DNA of 64,000 bases from the IMG/VR virus record IMGVR_UViG_3300034105_002232, one strand, 5' to 3'. Position numbers and translations under genes: made by a program. Below are positions 18,584-21,509 of this stretch, piece by piece. Under the pieces are notes generated by a model, which did no database searches, had not been told where the DNA came from, and saw only the letters and a program-made list of their open reading frames with translations. This DNA comes from a virus. Each line of letters starts with the position of its first letter. Position 1 is the stretch's first letter.

Positions 18584-19434
18584 TAGGTCCCCCATTCATT
18601 TTTAAATAGTGGTACTTGCAATCTATCACTATATCTTAGGCCATGTTGCATGGCCAATTCTGCCACTCTGCGATTGTTTAGACTGTACACACTCTCAACA
18701 CCACCAACAGGCATTAGATACACAGGACCTGTGAATCCCGCTTGTCTATAGGCCTGCACAGTCCATACAGCTTCTTCAACATCGGCCTCTGTGGCTACTA
18801 CCAATTTGAGATAGGTATGTCCGTATTTTTCATAATTGCACACAATATCAGGCCGAATAGCTTCGTCTCTACTTTCTCCCGAGCAACTTAGCTTGGTACT
18901 GACACTAAAAGTCACTTCACGTTTGACGCCACTGGCAAATTCCCACTTGGTCAAATACTGTGCAAACTCAGTTGACAGTTCTTGAGTACCATTTGTTTCA
19001 AATGTAATCTCTTTGAGCGTGGCCATTTCTGGTTGTTCTAGCAAGTCGGGATATGCACGTTGCCACCCCAGCAGCGGTTCACCACCTGTGATCACAAGAT
19101 GTTCGTCTCTCCACTCTTTGAATGGCAAGGTCTCTACAATAGACTTGGCAATCACATCAGTATCGTATGTGGCGGAAAGATCTTTGAATCTTGGATCCCA
19201 AGACGCATAACTGTCACATCCTGTACTCACTAACGGTAGTTCGTGATAGAATTTAAAGTCTGCAACACGATCAGCAATGGCCTCTACTTCAGTGCTGGCC
19301 TGACCAGCAGGCATACCAAAGCCGGCGCATTTGAAGTTGCATCCAAATGTTCTCAAGAACACACTAGGCACACCCATATAACGGCCTTCACCTTGGATAC
19401 TGTAAAACAATTCTGCTATCTTGAGTTTACTCAT
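18583..19434 (-). CDS. queE: 7-carboxy-7-deazaguanine synthase (radical SAM)
   Basis: ELFYSIQGEG, VFLRTFGCNFKC...CDS, ITGGEP, FETNGT; coupled to queD. Confidence 0.92.
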   Translation of the reverse strand: MSKLKIAELFYSIQGEGRYMGVPSVFLRTFGCNFKCAGFGMPAGQASTEVEAIADRVADFKFYHELPLVSTGCDSYASWDPRFKDLSATYDTDVIAKSIVETLPFKEWRDEHLVITGGEPLLGWQRAYPDLLEQPEMATLKEITFETNGTQELSTEFAQYLTKWEFASGVKREVTFSVSTKLSCSGESRDEAIRPDIVCNYEKYGHTYLKLVVATEADVEEAVWTVQAYRQAGFTGPVYLMPVGGVESVYSLNNRRVAELAMQHGLRYSDRLQVPLFKNEWGT

Positions 19435-19934
19435 ACAAACAAGTCCTCGTTCCATTCACGATGGCCTTCTCTAAAAGCCATGTTGCTTTGTGTTTCGCGC
19501 ACTTCTACTCGGTAGCACCACAATCGTTCTGCTTCTGATTGCCCCCACATGTCAGGGATGTACACTCCATTAACATATTTGTAAAGTTGGTCAGCCAGGC
19601 CTTCGCAACCTAATCTAGGTAGTATGGTCAGCTTGGCTAGCTTGCGCCGTTCCATTTCTTTGTAGAACTCCAGCTCAGGATCATCCTCAGCTACCAGCAG
19701 GGTATGATCAAACTGGCTTTCGAGTACGCTTTTGAGTTCTTTAAGCCCACCATAATCAGCAGCCCAGTTGCGGGCATCAAGATTATTAGTACCAAAATAA
19801 AACTTCATGCTAAAACTATAACCGTGAATCAGGTTGCAATGGCTATCGGCTCGCCATTGACGGTATGCTACCGGAAAGGCATTGTGATACTCTTTGGTAC
19901 TGGTAAATTTGTATTGTACTGGTTGTAGTGTCAT
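19431..19934 (-). CDS. queD: 6-carboxy-5,6,7,8-tetrahydropterin synthase
   Basis: CNLIHGY (CxxxHG), DYG.LK, FDH, VRET. Confidence 0.92.
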   Translation of the reverse strand: MTLQPVQYKFTSTKEYHNAFPVAYRQWRADSHCNLIHGYSFSMKFYFGTNNLDARNWAADYGGLKELKSVLESQFDHTLLVAEDDPELEFYKEMERRKLAKLTILPRLGCEGLADQLYKYVNGVYIPDMWGQSEAERLWCYRVEVRETQSNMAFREGHREWNEDLFV

Positions 19935-19940
19935 TGTATT

Positions 19941-20017
19941 GCTCCTATGTGTAATAATAACATAGGCTGTAGAATTTGTAAAGCGGGATAAAGCCAGAAA
20001 GGCCGCTGTGTAGAATT
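19941..20017 (-). promoter_or_regulatory. candidate cis-regulatory RNA (riboswitch-like) in the queD leader
   Basis: Hairpin AGCGG/CCGCT followed by hairpin CCTATGT/ACATAGG that overlaps the AGGAG SD; TAAATA box directly upstream. Confidence 0.5.
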
Positions 20018-20021
20018 ATAT

Positions 20022-21509
20022 TTATGTTTGTTTTAGTAACATATATCTATTTTGTGGATTTTTAAAACTTACAAAACTCTGTTCAATTGAGGACAGTGAA
20101 AAACCAGCATTCCATAATGGCCAGCTGTATTTAATACCTTCTTCCATAATTCTCAGATGGCGGCGGACTCGTTCTTTAAAGTCAAACTCTGGTCTTGCAG
20201 GATCTAACCAAAATTTTGTATTCATATGCCCGGTAGCTGCGTCTTGTTGAAAAACAAAATTTTTATTAATTGCAATTGACTCTAAATGTGTATCGGGCAA
20301 CACACTTAATAGATTTAAAGTTTCGACCCCAATAATAGTACCACTTGCAACATATTTTTGCCATCTAGAAAACATTTGTAATGTCTCATTATAATCTTCA
20401 ATGGTTTCAGATATGTATCCTGTAAAGAATAAAAAAAGAATCTCGATGCCATGTTTTTGAAAATTTTCTAAATAAAATTCAATGTCATCATTGGTAAATT
20501 TTTTACCAATTTCAAATCTAATCCGATCACACCCAGATTCAATACCAGCATATAATCGTTTTCCTCCTCCTTCTTTGATCAAATCAAAATGATCTTTTGG
20601 AGTAGTTTCCTTGGATCGTATTATATATTGTCCGGACCACGATATTGGTGTGTGAAATCTATAATTAGCTAAAGTATTGCACATGTCGTTAAATGCCTTA
20701 AAACTGCCGTTTATTAGACTGTCTGCAAAGTAAAAATCAGTAACTCCGTATGTTTCGTAATGTTGTATAATTTCGCTAGCAATGTTCTGACCTGATCTAA
20801 ATTGATATTTGGGAGTTGTTACTCTAACGTCACAGAACGTACAATCTCTAACACATCCTCTGCTGCCAATAATATTAAATTCTAATTTGTTTTCATCGTT
20901 ACGATACGCTGTTAAGTCATAGTATGAATAATCCGGAAACGGATACTGATCCAAATTAGTTATCTGTACAAAGTCCAAATTTCCTATACCTGGACCTGAG
21001 CTATGCTTGAAATATTGTATTAGCGATTCTTCGGCCTCGCCTACAATATACTCATCAATTAGATTATTGTCTTTAAGAATAGTACCATAAGTTTTACTAT
21101 TTCCAATTACTCTTTTAATTCCTGCACCACCAATTATAATTTTAGCCTTGGATTTTTTCCTAATGCTTGGTAATAGAATATTAGTAAATGATTGTGCCAG
21201 ATATGAAAATAAACTAACTATAATGTAATCAAAACTACTAACTTGAATCTGATCTAGATAATTTAGTAACCATTGATTAATTATTTCTTTTTGGTCTGCG
21301 GAATAATCAGACACCATCTCGTAAAAAACATCGTCAAAAAAAGAATCAGGTTTATTGATATTTCTTAAATATTCACGTAAGTGTATATTCATATCTTTGG
21401 CCGAGACATCGTGCCCAATACTAGCACAGAGACTCGCTAATATTGCGCCACTTAACGGAGGCCGTAGATGATCAAGAGGCGGCACATGTAATATTAACGT
21501 CTTAATCAT
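20022..21509 (-). CDS. B12-binding domain radical SAM protein
   Basis: N-terminal B12-like domain (IIIGG, GEAE); SRGCVRDCTFC; GIESG. Confidence 0.88.
   Translation of the reverse strand: MIKTLILHVPPLDHLRPPLSGAILASLCASIGHDVSAKDMNIHLREYLRNINKPDSFFDDVFYEMVSDYSADQKEIINQWLLNYLDQIQVSSFDYIIVSLFSYLAQSFTNILLPSIRKKSKAKIIIGGAGIKRVIGNSKTYGTILKDNNLIDEYIVGEAEESLIQYFKHSSGPGIGNLDFVQITNLDQYPFPDYSYYDLTAYRNDENKLEFNIIGSRGCVRDCTFCDVRVTTPKYQFRSGQNIASEIIQHYETYGVTDFYFADSLINGSFKAFNDMCNTLANYRFHTPISWSGQYIIRSKETTPKDHFDLIKEGGGKRLYAGIESGCDRIRFEIGKKFTNDDIEFYLENFQKHGIEILFLFFTGYISETIEDYNETLQMFSRWQKYVASGTIIGVETLNLLSVLPDTHLESIAINKNFVFQQDAATGHMNTKFWLDPARPEFDFKERVRRHLRIMEEGIKYSWPLWNAGFSLSSIEQSFVSFKNPQNRYMLLKQT

Follow-up and report, generated by a model that had tools for sequence, protein, structure and literature searches.

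A conserved H-type pseudoknot in the leader of queD-like genes of uncultured giant phages, a candidate riboswitch class

Background

Among small pseudoknots of mRNA leaders, the preQ1-I riboswitches possess a P2 helix of three to four pairs that includes Shine-Dalgarno (SD) bases, and their ligand-bound state is OFF. The edge of the ligand other than that read by the specificity cytosine is read by U6, the first base of L1, together with A29/A30 at the 3' end of L3. We know of no preQ1 riboswitch that is wired ON, and ON switches are uncommon on biosynthetic genes. Phages of the T4 type use leader pseudoknots that are bound by protein. The preQ1-I class (RF00522) comprises types I-III, for example those of B. 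subtilis queC, T. tengcongensis, C. antarcticum and E. coli; the specificity cytosine is located immediately 5' of the P1 3' strand and is preceded by U in type I and by A in types II and III (PMC11625349). Riboswitches are rare in phages, and those known are borrowed bacterial classes (PMC9004378). They include the glutamine riboswitches (glnA and Downstream-peptide motifs) of cyanophages and pelagiphages (PMC9004378).

The window analysed here is a stretch of 64,000 nucleotides from an uncultured giant phage (IMG/VR record IMGVR_UViG_3300034105_002232). On its minus strand, a leader of 87 bases precedes a queD-like gene. A preliminary description, made from the letters of the window alone, had called this leader structured and riboswitch-like and had proposed conservation and covariation among homologous leaders as the check; both have been found, and the leader is conserved, covarying and cis-acting. 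Judged from sequence comparison, it is fairly probable that the leader contains a cis-acting RNA switch belonging to an uncatalogued riboswitch class, so far present only in phages.

Architecture of the leader pseudoknot

All the minus-strand pieces listed in the preliminary description are present in the window, including stem 1 (AGCGG/CCGCT, 20007-20003 with 19986-19982) and stem 2 over the AGG of the AGGAG SD (19966-19960 with 19950-19944). The two stems had been regarded as independent hairpins, but stem 2 is separated from the linker by bases that pair with the loop of stem 1, and the fold is an H-type pseudoknot at 20007-19965 of the minus strand. The aptamer measures about 45-50 nt across the family.

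In the window, the P1 5' strand (AGCGG, 20003-20007) and the P1 3' strand (CCGCU, 19982-19986) enclose a loop of 16 nt with three successive parts: (i) the pyrimidine-rich L1, CCUUUCU (19996-20002), the second and third bases of which (C, U) are near-invariant in the family while the first is variable (UCU 63, CCU 47, ACU 16; n=130); (ii) the P2 5' strand (19989-19995), composed of a GGCU core, U19991, the U side of a conserved U.C mismatch, and the extension step U19990-A19989, which is CA in most relatives; (iii) L2 (19987-19988), with the variable U19988 and, at the P1/P2 junction immediately 5' of the P1 3' strand, the unpaired C19987. According to the family comparison, L2 consists of one or two variable bases before the junction C. 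This C is present in 100% of the elements that the covariance model recovered among the loci fetched via the QueD protein, and the base preceding it is mostly U, also C or A.

Behind P1 lies L3, an A-rich linker of 10 nt (19972-19981; family pattern WUAYAAAYUC), with invariant A residues at its third, fifth and seventh positions and an invariant UC at its end. P2 is formed by pairing of the P1 loop with the bases just 3' of this linker and contains six pairs and a conserved U.C mismatch. Its 3' strand (19965-19971) consists of the extension step U19971-A19970, UG in most relatives, the mismatch partner C19969 and the core AGCC (19968-19965). Throughout the family, P2 follows the same plan of four to five core pairs, the U.C mismatch and a 2-bp CA/UG step; U19990-A19970 of the window is a compensated variant of the usual C-G pair. 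The sequestor hairpin P3 (19944-19966) pairs 19966-19960 with 19950-19944, so that the AGG of the SD (19942-19946) lies within its 3' arm. Two bases, C19966 and C19965, are shared: P3 begins with them, and the P2 3' strand ends with them.

The preliminary description had also pointed to a direct repeat, AATTCTACA. Its two copies of 9 nt do occur at about 20016-20008 and 19976-19968, and the 3' copy corresponds to L3 and the P2 3' strand. The repeat is specific to the window: the 5' copy is not conserved, being seen in part and only in the closest relative (L297), and the repeat was rejected as a functional feature.

Conservation and covariation

Statistics of the single leader are unremarkable (minimum free energy, MFE, of -13.9 kcal/mol, z = -1.1 against shuffles); folding of a single sequence, to which the knot is invisible, is uninformative here. 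The homologues of the leader show far more than chance. The element was found in 73 of 80 loci fetched via the QueD protein, and in full in 78 of 80 loci fetched with a 19-nt DNA pattern that is blind to the downstream gene. In total, 130 distinct aptamers were gathered from IMG/VR phage contigs, well over a hundred in number. A covariance model built without the window assigns the window 46 bits (E 2e-10).

P1 is 100% paired in 49 distinct sequences, with compensatory changes at three of five pairs, while the two top G-C pairs are invariant. When the P2 core and extension are added, 98.4% of positions are paired and six of eleven pairs are compensated in 77 distinct sequences, compared with at most 44% paired in a slid-partner control on the same sequences; as the sequences are related, such counts overstate the number of independent events. 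MAFFT alone left P2 out of register because of the variable length of L2. A P2-based covariance model (R2) was used for aligning, and alignments A3 and A4 lean towards P2. Free of this bias is a permutation test of own versus foreign loop/tail pairing, in which none of 5000 permutations reaches the observed score. A search on the rare CUAC form of L3 alone yielded four more loci, all four with the matching UUAU in the loop, and a CG/CG form occurs in three loci (L042, L293 and L421).

The U.C mismatch is kept in 124 of 130 aptamers. The highly conserved unpaired bases are the junction C, the CU of L1 and the A.A.A..UC of L3. The G.U pairs are valid only on the sense strand of queD, which places the structure in RNA and not in DNA.

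Association with QueD-family genes and distribution

The regulated gene (19431-19934, minus strand, ATG at 19934-19932) encodes a QueD-like protein of the PTPS fold with 167 aa (Pfam PF01242 at 9e-14; TIGR03367 QueD below cut-off). In the gene-blind scan, 76 of the 78 full elements are located directly 5' of a QueD-family ORF, over four subfamilies with phmmer E values of 1e-27 to 1e-111 against the QueD of the window; the remaining two (L349, L361) have a single adjoining ORF of another kind. Five phage contigs of 229-519 kb carry one copy per genome, and in phage contigs no copy stands in front of folE or queE, situated 3-175 kb from the element. The preliminary description had placed the element before a queD-queE-DUF2061-metK operon and had counted SAM among its possible ligands. 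Of the downstream genes, the QueD-family gene alone is constant; those behind it vary between loci, and no other co-conserved neighbour was seen. metK follows queD in this window only, which weakens the case for SAM, and SAM was rejected as a ligand deduced from metK.

No match was found in Rfam 15, either for the whole window at gathering scores or for slices of 801 nt and 106 nt and two other members at E<=10; what was returned at E<=10 is noise (snoRNA and miRNA models). In 50,697 deposited phage genomes, no counterpart was detected at BLAST sensitivity by megablast of the region or blastn of a typical leader. In the cultured phages closest by QueD (ACP17, R5C and X1), queD overlaps or abuts the gene before it, so that a leader would have no space. 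For bacteria, a GTDB scan used a pattern of 16 fixed bases, for which hundreds of chance matches are expected in 596 Gb; among the matches listed, nearly all are due to chance and L137 alone is genuine. The element was not found in the bacterial genomes examined, save two contigs, probably of phage origin, in one MAG, and 120 other genomes of the family of this MAG gave only weak false matches without P1. In uncultured lake phages the element is abundant.

Transcription signals and expression platform

A promoter-like box precedes the pseudoknot (20015-20024): TAAATA (20024-20019), overlapping the TAA stop of the upstream ORF (20024-20022), and TATAAT (20020-20015), a perfect hexamer overlapping TAAATA and ending 7 nt before P1. 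Among 162 distinct upstream regions, 132 have a hexamer of the TAARTA (89) or TATAAT-like (43) kind with its end 5-12 nt ahead of P1. From this spacing, transcription is predicted to start at or adjacent to the first base of P1, which would make the aptamer the 5' end of the mRNA. Neither CATAARTA nor TATAAATA is enriched as a promoter word in the window. A terminator reading was rejected, as the U-tract is absent and no terminator is predicted; so was a read-through or frameshift knot serving the upstream ORF, given that upstream genes differ and that in classes B and C of the leaders a putative promoter separates them from the knot.

A second, strong promoter-like sequence of the sigma-70 type is situated inside the element (19954-19982): TTTACA, a 17-nt spacer and TG-n-TATTAT, with 10 of 12 matches and the TG present. 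Its TTTACA is formed by the P1 3' end and L3, and its TATTAT lies in the P3 loop. Most class A relatives have TTTACA-N17-TGnTATAAT, which is missing in classes B and C. This embedded promoter is possibly a dual use of the sequence, separate from the RNA fold.

The SD is located at least 19 nt downstream of the knot. When the knot is left out of the MFE fold, the P2 3' strand is paired to bases of the SD or of the start codon in 163 of 167 distinct leaders; in a shuffle control this is the case for 45%. The sequestor helix hides the SD in the window and the start codon in other classes, and at least four unrelated platform designs build this anti-SD/anti-start overlap. Because the P2 3' strand is also the anti-SD/anti-start strand, formation of the knot should switch translation on. 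Modelled accessibility of SD and start rises from a median of 0.31 to 0.51 once the P2 3' strand is engaged. In class A, to which the window belongs, the overlap of P2 and sequestor is only 2 nt and modelled accessibility changes from 0.50 to 0.59, which lends weak support to the ON direction for these leaders.

Comparison with described RNA elements

The preliminary description had noted a resemblance to preQ1-I without a match to the consensus, and both points stand. The two elements have in common (i) a small H-type knot with a 5-bp P1; (ii) a conserved closing G-C floor; (iii) at the specificity position, next to the P1 3' strand on its 5' side, an unpaired C; (iv) an A-rich L3; (v) a location before a gene of the 7-deazaguanine pathway. 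The queD-leader element is nevertheless without a covariance-model match: with the gathering score as threshold RF00522 is silent over the entire window, and so it is at E<=10 on 801 nt, 106 nt and two other members. The L1 base equivalent to U6 is variable (U 63, C 47, A 16 of 130), L3 is longer (10 nt) and terminates in an invariant UC instead of a ligand-contacting A, and P2 extends over seven positions, one of them the conserved U.C mismatch. Whereas P2 of preQ1-I contains the SD, here the SD is external to the knot, and the predicted switch is ON. Finally, the element is so far known from uncultured phage contigs alone, and there from the leaders of QueD-family genes alone. The two knots thus constitute a natural experiment, in that they share floor and junction C but not the remaining pocket bases or the wiring, and their comparison informs how small pseudoknot pockets are re-tuned.

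SAM-II and SAM-V are H-type knots too, and their pyrimidine-rich L1 occupies the major groove of P2, but the queD leader has neither an Rfam match to them nor a steady association with metK or SAM genes. Guanidine-III and fluoride riboswitches are compact H-type knots whose ligand-stabilised form is thought to release expression signals; they differ in sharing no sequence or model similarity and in their entirely other gene context. THF-II (the folE motif) also acts on a gene of the pterin pathway and recognises a guanine-like face, yet it is a hairpin, not a knot, and its model finds no match in the queD leader. The phage glutamine riboswitches are borne by aquatic myophages as well but are copies of a bacterial class. 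The leader of T4 gene 32 mRNA has an H-type knot at the 5' end of a phage mRNA that controls translation of the downstream gene, acting as a nucleation site for gp32 that is followed by an unstructured AU-rich tract. In contrast, the queD leader has a built-in, mutually exclusive sequestor helix and pocket-like conserved unpaired bases.

Proposed mechanism and alternative explanations

As in riboswitches generally, covarying helices and conserved unpaired bases that are candidates for a pocket occur in a 5' leader, and the platform is mutually exclusive with part of the aptamer. We infer that the pseudoknot binds a ligand which switches QueD synthesis on. In the proposed mechanism, L3 (10 nt, A-rich) would lie in the minor groove of P1, and the ligand, stacked at the helix junction and read by the junction C, would stabilise the knot. 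With its 3' end, the P2 3' strand doubles as the 5' arm of the downstream helix hiding the SD or start, so that formation of the knot would withdraw the sequestor arm and allow translation of QueD. The leading guess for the ligand is a base with a guanine-like face, e.g. a pterin or 7-deazapurine intermediate or guanine.

In the pathway leading to 7-deazaguanine modifications of DNA, which serve against restriction by the host, the element is linked to one enzyme step only, that of QueD. If a metabolite is bound, the roughly 50-nt aptamer would be a new variant of fold, compact enough to be studied structurally and to be employed as a tool, and the leader a rare ON switch on a biosynthetic gene; phages would then time the hypermodification of their DNA by metabolite sensing. 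A bolder proposal, to which we give slightly less than an even chance, is a class so far seen in phages only that senses a guanine-faced metabolite in a way unlike any known riboswitch and turns on the committed step of 7-deazaguanine hypermodification of phage DNA. Candidate ligands would be, for example, 7,8-dihydroneopterin triphosphate (the FolE product), 6-carboxytetrahydropterin, 7-carboxy-7-deazaguanine or guanine from DNA base exchange. If true, this would be the first riboswitch class evolved in and confined to viruses.

The fold and the strand overlap would fit a protein effector equally well, and by analogy with T4 gene 32 and gp32 the knot may be bound by a phage translational regulator or by QueD itself in autoregulation. 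The origin from giant phage contigs and the QueD protein family as the constant partner are consistent with such binding, which is nevertheless unlikely: the element is near-unchanged before four distant QueD subfamilies, which argues against co-evolving recognition by QueD, no other neighbouring gene is co-conserved, and strictly conserved unpaired junction bases in an RNA of 50 nt are typical of small-molecule pockets. Somewhat less likely still is a knot acting independently of any ligand, as a stabiliser against 5'-end-dependent decay or as a means of setting a fixed, temperature- or Mg-dependent translation level through competition with the sequestor. Predicted transcription starts at P1, as in known 5' stabiliser hairpins, agree with it, and triplexes of A-rich L3 and pyrimidine-rich L1 are known in ligand-free pseudoknots, so that the conserved L3 adenines could be explained in this manner. 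It leaves unexplained, however, the conserved junction C and U.C mismatch, the restriction to one gene per genome of 230-520 kb and the anti-SD/anti-start overlap rebuilt in at least four platforms.

The shared H-type knot, 5-bp P1, invariant G-C floor, A-rich L3 and que-pathway gene also suit a very divergent true preQ1-I riboswitch, a fourth type that would bind preQ1 or preQ0 via the C before the P1 3' strand; the base before this C is in most cases U, the type I base, or else A, the base of types II and III (PMC11625349). We consider this improbable, given the silence of RF00522 at E<=10 on 106 nt, the variable U6 equivalent, the UC end of L3, the mismatched seven-position P2 devoid of the SD and the ON wiring. 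QueC makes preQ0, and five related genomes contain no full-length QueC, only partial or weak matches. Finally, the conserved signals might reside in DNA, as a sigma-70 promoter with a flanking inverted-repeat operator, for in class A the CCTATG/CATAGG arms flank the -10 box of TTTACA-N17-TGnTATAAT. This explanation is hardly credible, since classes B and C keep the aptamer without the promoter, P1 and P2 lie partly outside it, and among the covarying pairs are G.U pairs that only one strand allows. Within the favoured riboswitch reading, the class A promoter may be real but an add-on; it would yield short unregulated transcripts and could explain part of the conservation.

Identification of the leader element

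Through analysis of the window and its relatives, a real, abundant and uncatalogued pseudoknot leader has been identified, which is specific to QueD genes and has to date been seen in phage contigs alone. In the window it lies in an 87-nt intergenic gap on the minus strand, between a B12-type radical-SAM ORF (495 aa, 21509-20022, minus) and the QueD-like gene (167 aa, 19934-19431, minus; Pfam PTPS 9e-14). The pieces listed in the preliminary description all lie inside this gap, so that the observation as a whole is confirmed: (i) a TAAATA box (20024-20019); (ii) an AGCGG/CCGCT stem (20007-20003 paired with 19986-19982); (iii) a second hairpin (19966-19960 paired with 19950-19944) masking the AGG of the AGGAG Shine-Dalgarno (SD) sequence (19946-19942); (iv) a 9-nt direct repeat, AATTCTACA, on both sides of the stem (20008-20016 and 19968-19976, minus strand). 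The repeat is probably a local accident, since its 5' copy is shared only partially, by the closest relative (locus L297). Folded alone, the window leader is unremarkable (MFE -13.9 kcal/mol, z = -1.1). Rfam 15 gave no match at gathering scores for the window as a whole, nor any relevant one at E<=10 for slices of 801 and 106 nt.

No near DNA match to the region is present among 50,697 deposited phage genomes. A QueD protein query of IMG/VR retrieved at least 599 stretches, the best 80 of which share 86-94% amino-acid identity and lie mostly on contigs, up to 519 kb long, from environmental metagenomes. In these 80 loci a strongly conserved leader is visible in the 130 nt preceding the start codon, and covariance model R1 detects the element in 73. 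A strict pattern demanding a perfect first helix (P1) overlooked no element in the QueD-anchored loci, and the perfect pairing of P1 is thus not a selection artefact. The loci lacking the element are truncated, or else their queD is translationally coupled to the preceding gene; in a second coupled set the preceding gene is queE. The switch appears restricted to loci in which queD is the first gene of a transcription unit of its own. In a sister phage group (L225, L238, L242, L281 and L289) queD comes immediately after queE, with TAAAATG shared by the stop and start codons, and the RNA element was not found in these contig fragments.

Pseudoknot fold and covariation

The element folds as an H-type pseudoknot, composed on the minus strand of P1 (20007-20003/19986-19982), L1 (20002-19996), the P2 5' strand (19995-19989), L2 (U19988 with the junction C19987, a C present in every copy), L3 (19981-19972) and the P2 3' strand (19971-19965). 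In the 49 distinct sequences P1 pairing is complete (100%), with compensatory changes at three of its five pairs and two invariant G-C pairs at its top; AGCGG is replaced by ACCGG, AGAGG, AGTGG, ATCGG or TGCGG, and the 3' strand matches each time. The second helix is formed by a short purine-rich segment of the P1 loop, complementary to the bases just 3' of the conserved linker. These partners covary (GGTG/CACC, GGCG/CGCC, GGCA/TGCC, GGACA/TGTCT, GACGC/GTGTC, GGCAT/ATGCC and others, as well as GGCT/AGCC, the window's own version), and pairing with the own tail outscores pairing with foreign tails, the observed score being reached in none of 5000 permutations.

P2 extends past this core. A U.C mismatch follows, seen in 124 of 130 sequences, and past it the linker-terminal "CUGC" supplies the UG that pairs with a CA step of the loop. 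The longer helix explains the two deviations of the window from the consensus, U19990 for the usual C and A19970 for the usual G, which together make a compensated pair. An IMG/VR search with the CUAC form alone and the loop unconstrained returned four further loci, all four with the matching UUAU; the neighbouring pair occurs in a CG/CG form in L042, L293 and L421. When 77 distinct sequences are aligned by a model, P1, the P2 core and its extension are 98.4% paired with six of eleven pairs compensated, against at most 44% paired when the partners are slid; the alignments behind the P2 counts were fitted to the P2 core and are biased towards P2. Several covarying pairs are G.U, valid only on the queD sense strand, which places the structure in the RNA. 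The conserved unpaired bases comprise the CU of L1, the junction C, the U.C mismatch and A.A.A..UC in L3.

Distribution and link to queD

A gene-blind scan of IMG/VR, using a 19-nt pattern and ignoring the downstream sequence, gave 80 loci, 78 with a complete element. Of these 78, 76 have an ORF of the QueD family as their next ORF, two of them with a GTG or TTG start; in the other two (L349 and L361) one non-QueD ORF directly follows the element. That of L349 is cupin-like (at least 113 aa), and that of L361 is an uncharacterised ORF with a TTG start, resembling an uncharacterised 293-aa, TTG-initiated protein lying between the element and queD in L043 (2118-2999). The QueD-family ORFs fall into four subfamilies (phmmer E against the window's QueD from 1e-27 to 1e-111), all matching TIGR03367 below its cut-off, so that their enzymatic product is not certain. 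The window's protein scores 32 bits against the NCBIfam QueD cut-off of 89; it reads C-x3-H-G-Y, the canonical QueD motif being C-x3-H-G-H.

The genes behind queD differ (QueE-like, B12 radical SAM, FAD oxidase, UvdE, glycosyl- and methyltransferases), and in a 519-kb genome queD stands alone. The element is single-copy in the window and in each of five phage contigs of 229-519 kb (G001-G005, carrying L078, L007, L030, L008 and L063). Each of the five has genes for FolE and for a QueE-like protein; apart from one folE that adjoins the element, these are located at distances of 3-175 kb from queD, and no copy of the element was found at their folE or QueE-like genes. Given the varying downstream genes and this absence, the RNA follows the QueD step, and neither the window's operon nor metK; of the earlier interpretation, the structured queD leader stands and the link to a queD-queE-DUF2061-metK operon falls. 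In three of the five genomes folE and queE are 50-175 kb distant from queD. No full-length QueC and no Pfam TGT match was found in the five.

Among the matches listed, a GTDB-wide pattern scan gave mostly chance hits and one genuine locus. The MAG of that locus, labelled Haliscomenobacter sp., carries two different copies (L137/L420 and L421) on two contigs, C1 and C58, of which one is 183 kb long; both contigs probably derive from phage and were binned with the bacterial DNA, and the MAG is possibly a host lead for the phages or a mere mis-binning. No element was found in 120 other genomes of its family, no leader in the closest cultured phages by QueD, and nothing in deposited phages by blastn with a typical leader.

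Predicted expression platform

At least four leader designs follow the knot on its 3' side. In class A, which includes the window's leader, the two terminal bases of the P2 3' strand open a CCUAUG arm pairing with CAUAGG of the SD region (sequestor hairpin P3). In class B UGUCGUC pairs with GAUGGCA, in class C GCC and AUUG pair with CAAUGGC across the start codon, and in L293 ACUCC pairs with GGAGU. When the segment after L3 is folded (MFE), 163 of 167 distinct leaders have two or more P2 3'-strand bases paired to bases of the SD or the start codon; with the region 5' of the SD shuffled, 45% show such pairing. When the P2 3' strand is blocked, as by the knot, the modelled median unpaired probability of the SD and start rises from 0.31 to 0.51, with an increase in 93% of leaders; the change modelled for the window is small (0.50 to 0.59). 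The strand overlap and the modelled accessibility point, with moderate confidence and less for class A, to a logic in which knot formation would turn translation on.

Comparison with known families and possible function

The defining features of preQ1-I riboswitches were taken from a 2024 review (PMC11625349). Common to both are the H-type knot, a 5-bp P1 with a G-C floor, an A-rich L3 and a C directly before the P1 3' strand; the base preceding this C is U, as in preQ1-I type I, or A or C. In contrast to preQ1-I, the element is not recognised by the preQ1-I covariance model, has no conserved uridine as first L1 base, ends L3 without the ligand-contacting adenine, and has neither a short SD-containing P2 nor, by its predicted wiring, OFF logic. 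It is therefore not assigned to that family. It may still work in the same way, with a flat ligand sandwiched between the P1 and P2 helices and recognised by the junction C. No account of a comparable element was found in the literature searches.

Most likely, the element represents a new class of riboswitch, wired ON. A knot bound by a protein, in the style of T4 gene 32, is possible, as is a ligand-free stabiliser or tuner, but both account less well for the conserved junction and mismatch bases, and for specificity to one gene across divergent QueD subfamilies, than does the riboswitch.

Predicted promoters

Among 162 distinct upstream regions, 132 have a promoter-like hexamer whose 3' end lies 5-12 nt before P1 (TAARTA in 89, TATAAT-like in 43, the latter often with a perfect TTGACA at 17 nt), which makes the TAAATA box of the preliminary description a conserved positional feature. 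The window also has a TATAAT (20020-20015, minus) ending 7 nt before P1. CATAARTA and TATAAATA are not enriched across the window. The hexamer position would make the aptamer the 5'-terminal part of the mRNA.

A strong sigma-70-like promoter, TTTACA-N17-TG-n-TATTAT (19982-19954, minus; score 10/12), is predicted inside the window's element. In the class A layout TTTACA lies in the P1 3' end and L3, and after 17 nt of spacer the P3 loop holds TGnTATAAT; most class A relatives have a near-consensus extended -10, keeping A2 and T6 of the box while position 3 varies. Judged from this layout, transcripts would lack the 5' arm of the sequestor and be unregulated, and the promoter may give early transcripts bypassing the switch. 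As a cause of the RNA conservation it is ruled out, because classes B and C lack it and retain the aptamer.

In L061, L068, L070 and others, an ATAAATA word lies within the spacer of a perfect TTGACA-N17-TATAAT, 18-25 nt upstream of P1, and early- and late-type promoters may thus overlap in front of the element.
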